This document shows positions 55,918-57,289 of a DNA stretch of 64,000 nucleotides, piece by piece; within the stretch, counting starts at the first letter, position 1; every line of letters begins with the position of its first letter. Source of the DNA: a bacterium (GTDB taxonomy: Bacteria > Desulfobacterota > Binatia > HRBIN30 > CADEER01); the NCBI GenBank assembly GCA_031401035.1, contig JANNRA010000032.1:59472-123471 (forward strand). Reading direction: 5' to 3'. A model generated the notes under the pieces. The model was not told where the DNA came from. It saw only the letters and a list, made by a program, of their open reading frames with translations, and searched no databases. Made by a program: the position numbers and the translations under genes.

Positions 55918-57081
55918 GTGAACATCCACGAGTTCCAGGGCAAGGCATTGCTCAAGCGCTACGGAGTGGCGGTGCCGCAGGGTCGCGAGGTAGTGAGTGC
56001 CGCTGACGCCGCGGTGGCGGCGAAGGAGTTCGGCGGCAGCTGCGTCATCAAGGCGCAGATACATGCTGGCGGTCGCGGCAAGGCCGGCGGCGTGAAGCTG
56101 TGCAAGAGCCCGGCGGAGGCGGAGCAGGCGGCAAAGACGTTGCTCGGGGCGACTCTGGTGACGCACCAGACGGGTCCGCAGGGCCGCGTCGTGAAGCGCC
56201 TTCTCGCCGAGGAGCTGCGCGATATCGAGCGCGAGTTCTACGTGGGGATGGTCGTCGACCGCGGCACCGGCCGCCTGGCGATGATGGCTTCGGCCGAGGG
56301 CGGCATCGAGATCGAGGAAGTCGCGGCCCTCGCGCCGGAGAAGATCCTGCGCGAAAGCATCGACCCCGCCGTCGGCCTGCAGGGGTTCCAGGCCCGCAAG
56401 CTGGCCTTCGGCATCGGGATCCCCGCGGCGTCGGTCAACAAGGCGGTGGCATTCATGCTCGGGCTGTACAAGGCCTTTGTCGAGAGCGACGCGGCTATGG
56501 CGGAGATCAACCCGCTGGTGCTGACCACGCAGGGCGACCTGTTGGCGCTTGATGCCAAGCTCGGGTTCGACGACAACGCGCTCTTCCGCCACGCCGAGAT
56601 CCGCGAGCTGCGCGACCTCAACGAAGAGGATCCGAAGGAAATCGACGCGTCGAAGTTCGACCTCAGCTACATCGCCCTCGACGGCAACATCGGCTGCATG
56701 GTCAACGGCGCCGGCTTGGCCATGGCGACGATGGACATCATCAAACATTTCGGCGGCGAGCCGGCCAACTTCCTCGACGTCGGCGGCGGCGCCACCACCG
56801 AGAAGGTGACGGAGGCCTTCAAGATCATCCTCGCCGACAAGAACGTGAAGGGCGTGCTCGTCAATATCTTCGGCGGCATCATGAAGTGCGATATCATCGC
56901 CAACGGGGTCGTCGAGGCTGCCAAACAGGTCAAGTTGGCGCTGCCGGTGGTGGTGCGGCTCGAGGGCACCAACGTCGAACTCGGACGCAAGATCCTGGCT
57001 GAATCCGGTCTGAACATTGAATCGGGCACCGATATGTCCGACGCCGCCCGCAAGATCGTCAAGGCGGTGGGCAAGCGCTGA
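55918..57081 (+). CDS. sucC: Succinate--CoA ligase [ADP-forming] beta subunit
   Basis: [22 protein letters not shown] (ATP-grasp), ...[18 protein letters not shown]..., ...[11 protein letters not shown]...; 387 aa with a GTG start. Confidence 0.9.
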
Positions 57082-57289
57082 TCGCAGGCCTGTGGAGTAC
57101 CTGTTGAGTTCCCCGCACGGGAAGGCCCGGATCTAAGACTCGACGCCCACCCCCGCCTACGGGAGCCTGGCCACACTCCACAATACCCAAGGATTATCTG
57201 GGGCATGCAGGCTCAATGTCGACCGGATCGAGGCTTCGCGCAAAACAGCGCGTTATGGCGGGGACATTCGGCCCCTGTGGATAACGCCC

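Follow-up and report, generated by a model that had tools for sequence, protein, structure and literature searches.

In succinyl-CoA synthetase, the phosphohistidine and the CoA site belong to the alpha subunit, SucD, and in the canonical sucCD arrangement (often mdh-sucC-sucD or sucABCD) the alpha-subunit gene directly follows sucC, the gene of the beta subunit. Here, we describe a sucC locus and its downstream spacer in a 64,000-nt stretch of a Binatia contig (JANNRA010000032.1 of assembly GCA_031401035.1; this whole stretch is called the window). In domain architecture and equivalog score, its SucC resembles those of canonical operons, and sucC is likewise paired with mdh, but sucD follows sucC neither in this stretch nor in about 20 related contigs. 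Separated subunit genes have been reported for a different enzyme, the citryl-CoA synthetase of Aquifex aeolicus: CcsA (aq_1306) and CcsB (aq_1888), a beta-like and an alpha-like subunit of the succinyl-CoA synthetase family, are encoded far apart and form one enzyme (PMC10052474, table). This parallels the split proposed here, whereas the SucC and SucD of Aquifex itself (aq_1620 and aq_1622) adjoin, unlike the window type.

The closest described systems for the spacer are non-origin DnaA-binding loci. In Bacillus, such clusters comprise 4 to 10 DnaA boxes within ~45 to 100 bp (PMC2533591, Table 2). The gcp-ydiF cluster is conserved and was not placed as a promoter operator; at the time of its discovery, no clear role could be given to it (PMC2533591). 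The Escherichia coli loci datA, DARS1, and DARS2 are non-coding elements that inactivate or reactivate DnaA; they hold three boxes (DARS) or five boxes (datA) and also need flanking or intervening sequence and sites for architectural proteins (PMC4585315). The likely explanation for our locus is that a GC-rich lineage of Binatia carries an old, fixed break after sucC, a sucD at an unlinked place, and a conserved spacer module of DnaA boxes.

The break between sucC and sucD

The sucC gene of the window (55918..57081, plus strand) has a GTG start and encodes an ADP-forming succinate--CoA ligase beta subunit of 387 amino acids (aa), as assigned by Pfam and NCBIfam. It begins 29 nt after the stop codon of mdh (54947..55888, plus strand), which encodes a malate dehydrogenase of 313 aa (Pfam Ldh_1_N and Ldh_1_C; NCBIfam NF004863 with 431 bits and TIGR01763 with 407 bits, both above cutoff). 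A purine-rich stretch lies ahead of the start, the N-terminus reads MNIHEFQGK, and the TGA stop codon at 57079-57081 closes the mdh-sucC unit, of which sucC is the final gene. The protein has a full-length architecture, with ATP-grasp_2 (PF08442) at residues 2-201 (E = 2.7e-70) and Ligase_CoA (PF00549) at residues 261-380 (E = 3.8e-34), and it passes the NCBIfam equivalog NF001913 with 572.5 bits (cutoff, 370). The ratio of nonsynonymous to synonymous substitution rates (dN/dS) was 0.09, 0.16, and 0.11 in comparisons with three relatives, indicating purifying selection. Judged by these features, sucC looks functional, and mdh-sucC would remain a working two-gene unit. Identity as MtkA, the beta subunit of malate--CoA ligase, was rejected, as the score of 541 bits on NF010647 lies below the cutoff of 604. 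This near-miss is uninformative because ordinary SucCs of intact sucCD operons score 550 to 595 bits on the same model, which is higher than the window SucC.

The first-pass annotation had described a GTG-started sucC behind mdh without an adjacent sucD. The open reading frame (ORF) calls, Pfam, and NCBIfam agreed with this description, and no sucD was found in the 64-kb window by tblastn with E. coli SucD or by a SucD profile hidden Markov model (HMM) with a working positive control. The profile HMM, again with a working positive control, also gave no match in 270 kb of DNA from the window lineage. With the SucD of L029 as the protein query (L-numbers are labels of loci or contigs retrieved for comparison), the best 120 matches were all at least 87% identical and all belonged to the L029 lineage, and SucD of the window lineage was not reached.

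The same arrangement was found in relatives. A look-up by exact sequence yielded no protein record for the window SucC. The closest SucC proteins, with 96% to 72% identity among the matches listed, came from metagenomes and metagenome-assembled genomes, and the named ones were mostly Candidatus Binatia. We compared the gene context in seven relatives drawn from JGI, NCBI, and ENA assemblies (SucC identities of 95, 85, 84, 78, 73, 73, and 72%), whose contigs reach 675 kb. All seven showed mdh-sucC, then a spacer, and then a convergent gene, and no CoA_binding or Succ_CoA_lig gene was present within 10 kb of sucC in any of them. Most of them also share the next genes of the window (Zincin_1, a methyltransferase, a PolB-like exonuclease, and uvrB), and the mdh-sucC pairing is kept in every related locus. 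A motif scan of JGI metagenomes yielded 11 further contigs with the sucC-plus-spacer junction (SucC identity, 70 to 91%), which brings the total for Binatia-type organisms to about 20 independent assemblies (SucC identity, 70 to 96%). Two loci from distant members of the lineage carry larger clusters of tricarboxylic acid (TCA) cycle genes, namely, gltA-DUF1232-mdh-sucC (L008, 2753-7167) and mdh-sdhCAB-sucC (L009, 1675-7167). Neither includes sucD, and these clusters make its absence more conspicuous.

We then compared the locus with 80 outgroup loci of other bacteria (SucC identity of 58 to 70% among the matches listed; this sample did not reach Binatia). The statement that sucC is almost universally followed by sucD agreed well with this sample: sucD lies downstream of sucC in 75 of the 80 loci, in 59 of them at a distance of at most 107 nt. 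One locus ends at a contig edge, and four lack sucD in the flank (L027, L059, L077, and L086), giving 75 of 79 informative loci. An orphan sucC is therefore not unique to the window lineage. The four orphan genes were found in metagenome-assembled genomes labelled Dadabacteria (L077, 4248-5375), Spirochaetia (L086, 10001-11122), Blastocatellia (L059, 1041-2183), and Myxococcales (L027, 10001-11176); the flanks covered up to 10 kb, except for L059 with only ~2.6 kb downstream. The SucC proteins of L077 and L086 are 77% identical to each other, and the nearest relative of the L027 SucC is that of the Binatia-type locus L008 (72%). In 11 further loci (L035, L038, L051, L054, L055, L063, L071, L078, L082, L088, and L089), from Rhodobacteraceae and other alphaproteobacteria, 0.5 to 2.3 kb lie between sucC and sucD. 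In those loci, the pair is interrupted, not separated.

Among the matches listed, the outgroups with the SucC nearest to that of the window lineage were L025 and L029. The L029 SucD query led to a densely sampled lineage, one member of which is labelled Candidatus Binatia bacterium (GCA_035457675.1); its contig displays the order icd-mdh-sucC-sucD-ndk-rlmN. Compared with the window type, the icd-mdh-sucC-sucD-ndk lineage shows 68 to 71% identity in Mdh and 63 to 70% in SucC. SucC motifs specific to the L029 type are absent from the window lineage, which a consensus query placed only in the middle of its ranking, and neither ndk nor rlmN is found near sucC in the window type. We also considered whether genomes with a linked sucCD might carry the orphan gene as an additional, paralogous copy of sucC. 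This is unlikely, since the sucCD-ndk lineage has a GC content of 55% compared to 62 to 70% for the window type, which indicates orthologous loci in different organisms and not paralogues in one genome. The retention of sucC-sucD in this related lineage and in 75 of the 79 informative outgroup loci argues that the split is an old, fixed breakpoint. As read from gene order, the breakpoint is located exactly between sucC and sucD, is ancient, and is fixed lineage-wide. Thus, the rearrangement proposed in the first-pass annotation is real, but it is neither recent nor an artefact.

A conserved module of DnaA-box-like sites

The spacer between the convergent sucC and Cys-rich genes occupies 57082..57289 (208 nt, 62.5% GC). 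It was confirmed to be non-coding, as no conserved ORF emerged when the spacers of relatives were compared; a small spacer-encoded ORF was rejected on this ground. The spacer had also been called visibly less GC-rich than its surroundings. Indeed, it falls at the 5th percentile of 208-nt windows (window mean, 69.1%; standard deviation, 4.0); however, the dip is only mild, with the flanking genes themselves at 65 to 66% GC.

Alignment of the spacer to those of relatives brought out a conserved module of 193 to 196 bp in 18 loci. In the window, it spans 194 bp (57091..57284), its consensus reads on the minus strand, and it is bounded by DnaA-box-like 9-mers. Between distant relatives, only two short regions of the spacer survive, and both are DnaA-box-like 9-mers. 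Box 1 (57091..57099, minus strand) reads TGTGGAGTA on the plus strand and TACTCCACA on the minus strand and has two mismatches to TTATCCACA, whereas box 1 of relatives is perfect or has one mismatch (TGTGGATAA in L010, TGTGGAAAA in L008, and TGTGGACAA in L005). Box 2 (57102..57110, minus strand) is a degenerate second copy, TGTTGAGTT, which follows 11 bp after box 1, i.e., by one helical turn; relatives have TGTGGATCG or TGTGGAGCA. Together, the two boxes form a tandem just after the sucC stop codon (TGTGGAGTA cc TGTTGAGTT in the window and TGTGGATAA gc TGTGGATCG in L010). Box 3 (57276..57284, minus strand) is a perfect DnaA box, TTATCCACA (TGTGGATAA on the plus strand), and the sole one in the window; 5 nt separate it from the convergent gene's stop codon. 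All 17 aligned modules carry TGTGGATAA, TGTGGACAA, or TGTTGATAA as box 3. The reported R-box consensus is TTWTNCACA (PMC4585315).

In the 17-sequence alignment, the invariant columns are those of the boxes (TGTGG, A, and CTGT). Every box has the same orientation, and the distance from box 1 to box 3 is 184 to 187 bp. Consensus-type boxes were strongly concentrated in the spacer: in eight loci, we counted 9 in 2.2 kb of spacer, always in one orientation, and 0 in 173.6 kb of flanks. The length of the module proved to be just as constrained. In a motif scan that allowed 184 to 206 bp, the sucC-linked matches (11 of 11) measured 194 to 196 bp, while unrelated matches were spread evenly over the range. 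The sequence between the boxes, in contrast, is poorly kept. The spacer is 71% identical to that of the closest relative, L001, compared to 92% for sucC (synonymous divergence dS of 0.28), and ~51 to 55% identical to those of relatives with 85% SucC identity. Outside the boxes, the spacer accumulates changes at roughly the pace of synonymous sites; the interior would thus drift almost freely while the module length is held. A few interior motifs nevertheless keep fixed positions, namely, AAGG (~+45), a TGC-N11-GCA dyad, GGAAA (~+100), and CTTAC (~+125). The dyad stands at a fixed position in most relatives (alignment columns 83-99) and is degenerated in the window (57147-57167).

Among the unrelated matches of the motif scan, five contigs with 36 to 47% GC (L097, L099, L128, L137, and L166) showed dense arrays of perfect boxes with an 11-bp phased tandem like that of boxes 1 and 2, TGTGGATAACCTGTGGATAA. 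These arrays probably represent origins, on chromosomes or plasmids, of unrelated bacteria with low GC content. The recovery of multi-box oriC-like clusters by the same scan supports the reading of the motif as DnaA boxes. L106, L131, and L144 matched with a module-like length but without sucC and were not counted as this module; the L106 match sits between genes for an FtsJ-like methyltransferase and an M20 peptidase.

Function of the module and rival explanations

From motif identity, enrichment, and conservation, we predict that the module most likely serves as a site of DnaA binding outside the origin. Like the gcp/ydiF cluster of Bacillus subtilis, it consists of intergenic DnaA boxes that lie where two convergent genes end and that are conserved among relatives. 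Several boxes, including TTATCCACA, are clustered in one intergenic region and kept in relatives, but the Bacillus-type density of 4 to 10 boxes with at most one mismatch in ~100 bp was not found: the window has one such box, and in relatives there are one or two, accompanied by weaker copies. E. coli datA and DARS are looser functional analogues; they show no sequence homology to the module, whose boxes all point one way. Given this lower density and a function read from sequence, the module may work like the Bacillus clusters or like datA and DARS, and it is not a proven member of either family. In the proposed course of events, an ancestral mdh-sucC-sucD(-ndk) unit would have been broken exactly after sucC, and the break would then have become fixed in a GC-rich uncultured Binatia lineage. 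SucD, which SucC needs for catalysis, would now be encoded at an unlinked place. DnaA, the replication initiator, would bind the module as a non-origin site, with the possible effect of titrating or modulating DnaA or of regulating transcription nearby. The constant distance between the boxes would be in keeping with a protein-DNA complex of defined architecture.

Several observations speak against this explanation. The sucD gene was located in no genome of the window lineage, so we infer rather than observe its relocation. The Bacillus clusters are far denser than the module, with its three predicted boxes over a fixed 194 bp. In the window, box 3 is the only good box, as box 1 has two mismatches and box 2 has four. 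Two relatives with an orphan sucC, L007 and L027, lack the module, which is thus not needed for the split arrangement. Finally, the interior motifs AAGG, TGC-N11-GCA, GGAAA, and CTTAC may be sites of a second or different DNA-binding protein.

Regarding the missing sucD, the idea that the contig is chimeric or was mis-joined at the 3' end of sucC, a point that the first-pass annotation had wanted checked, deserves practically no credence. Its sole support is the unusual lack of sucD together with the mild GC dip, and it is refuted by the identical junction in about 20 contigs assembled separately (JGI, ENA, and NCBI, including those of 185, 406, and 675 kb), across which the spacer is homologous and of equal length. 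It is also improbable that sucD has been lost altogether, with the orphan SucC using the alpha subunit of another nucleoside diphosphate (NDP)-forming CoA ligase or with no succinyl-CoA synthetase being made. Such a loss would agree with the lack of a SucD-like ORF in the 270 kb examined from the lineage and with L008 and L009, which cluster gltA, sdhCAB, and mdh with sucC yet lack sucD. Moreover, mtkA/B was called in 98 genomes in a survey of Binatota (PMC8262859, Text S1), so that another alpha-type gene may exist. However, the 270 kb cover a few per cent of the sampled genomes taken together, and the strong purifying selection on SucC, which scores as an ordinary SucC, implies a working partner. 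Since the alpha subunit provides the CoA site and the catalytic His, one would naturally expect its gene to lie elsewhere, and relocation of sucD to an unlinked place is plausible. There is very little likelihood of a combined scenario, in which the lineage has no dedicated sucD, SucC pairs with another alpha subunit (e.g., the malate thiokinase alpha listed for Binatota), and the module is a lineage-specific DnaA control locus. If this were true, one alpha would be common to two beta subunits. Mammalian mitochondria share one alpha between two beta subunits, but we know of no description of one alpha with two betas in bacteria.

Regarding the spacer, an unannotated RNA element had been suggested. 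We consider it unlikely that the spacer is a small RNA or a cis-regulatory RNA, whether as a 3' untranslated region element or as a DnaA-controlled antisense transcript. The constant length in the face of sequence drift would suit an RNA, and so would a sigma-70-like site on the minus strand of the window spacer (57222..57193, 10/12). Several relatives show a -35-like TCCACA that overlaps box 3 and lies 16 to 18 nt from a TAATGT or AATAAT hexamer, again on the minus strand. However, the sigma-70-like site is not conserved, being absent from L001, L004, and L151, and an Rfam scan of the spacer (E ≤ 10) returned only two meaningless matches to eukaryotic long non-coding RNA models (E of 5 to 8). 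Folding of the spacer was no more stable than that of shuffled sequences (z of +0.07 and +0.39 for the two strands), RNAalifold gave 0 consensus pairs both with 7 and with 17 homologous spacers, and the covariation of the TGC-N11-GCA dyad was not significant (113 of 500 shuffles scored as high). Neither an intrinsic terminator-like site nor conserved -35/-10 hexamers or a GC-rich hairpin with a T-run were present in the spacer, which argues against a terminator or promoter region as well. The suggestion of an unannotated element was thus borne out in that a conserved element is present, but this element looks like a DNA-level DnaA-box module and not like an RNA. A sigma-54 promoter, an integration host factor (IHF) site, and a dif site in the module were each rejected, judged by eye, for misfits of spacing or arms. 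Somewhat less doubtful is the possibility that the 9-mers are sites of another DNA-binding protein and resemble DnaA boxes by coincidence, which we still regard as rather unlikely. The invariant core is limited to TGTGGA..A and CTGT, box 2 is poor, and further interior motifs, including the dyad, are conserved; but the best-kept site is the exact 9-mer TTATCCACA, and the variants match the known ones TTGTCCACA, TTATCAACA, and TTTTCCACA. A role of the module as oriC, the chromosomal origin of replication, is highly improbable. Clustered, phased DnaA boxes in an intergenic region of lower GC content would fit an origin, and the same search pattern finds oriC-like clusters in other bacteria. An origin is unlikely, though, because no GC-skew switch was detected: the skew is ~+0.04 over the 57 kb left of the spacer and still positive to its right, no negative-to-positive switch occurs in the window, and no consistent one was seen in 12 related loci. 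Furthermore, the module has three boxes only and no AT-rich unwinding element (its GC content is 54 to 68%), Pfam detected neither dnaA nor dnaN among the called genes within 10 kb in related loci, and L007 lacks the module entirely. The non-origin DnaA-binding site hence remains our preferred reading of the module.

The sucC/sucD split is an ordinary kind of gene-order change, and neither finding overturns known biology. For operon-based annotation and pathway-completeness calls in Binatia, the split means that sucD should not be expected beside sucC. The junction constitutes a clean synapomorphy that sets the GC-rich Binatia-type lineages apart from the lower-GC lineage that keeps sucCD-ndk. 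As a candidate non-origin DnaA-binding locus, the module would be the first from an uncultured phylum, and its strictly kept box spacing of ~185 bp with a drifting interior represents a testable architectural constraint.

Taxon labels and the convergent gene

Public taxon labels look unreliable for the window lineage. L009, labelled "Deltaproteobacteria bacterium," and L010, labelled "Candidatus Kryptonia bacterium," both have the Binatia-type module, and L010 also displays the downstream gene order. L027 is labelled "Myxococcales bacterium" and has the mdh-sucC pair without sucD and without the module.

The gene on the other side of the spacer is oriented oppositely to sucC and encodes a Cys-rich secreted protein or lipoprotein, in agreement with the lipoprotein call of the first-pass annotation. 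Its ORF (57290..58237, minus strand) opens at a TTG; the likelier start is an ATG at 58201, 12 codons in, which gives a probable coding sequence of 57290..58201 and a protein of 303 aa. The protein has a signal peptide ending in ...LLLTAAAC and 13 Cys. Its family is unassigned: no Pfam family matched, and the best NCBIfam model, TIGR04201 (Myxo_Cys_RPT), scored 19.6 bits, below the cutoff of 25. Homologues occupy the same position in L001 (74% identity), in L004 and L005 (51%), and in L154, L139, L124, and L007 (29%). The gene is fast-evolving, with 74% identity where SucC has 95%, 51% where SucC has 85%, and 29% in L007.

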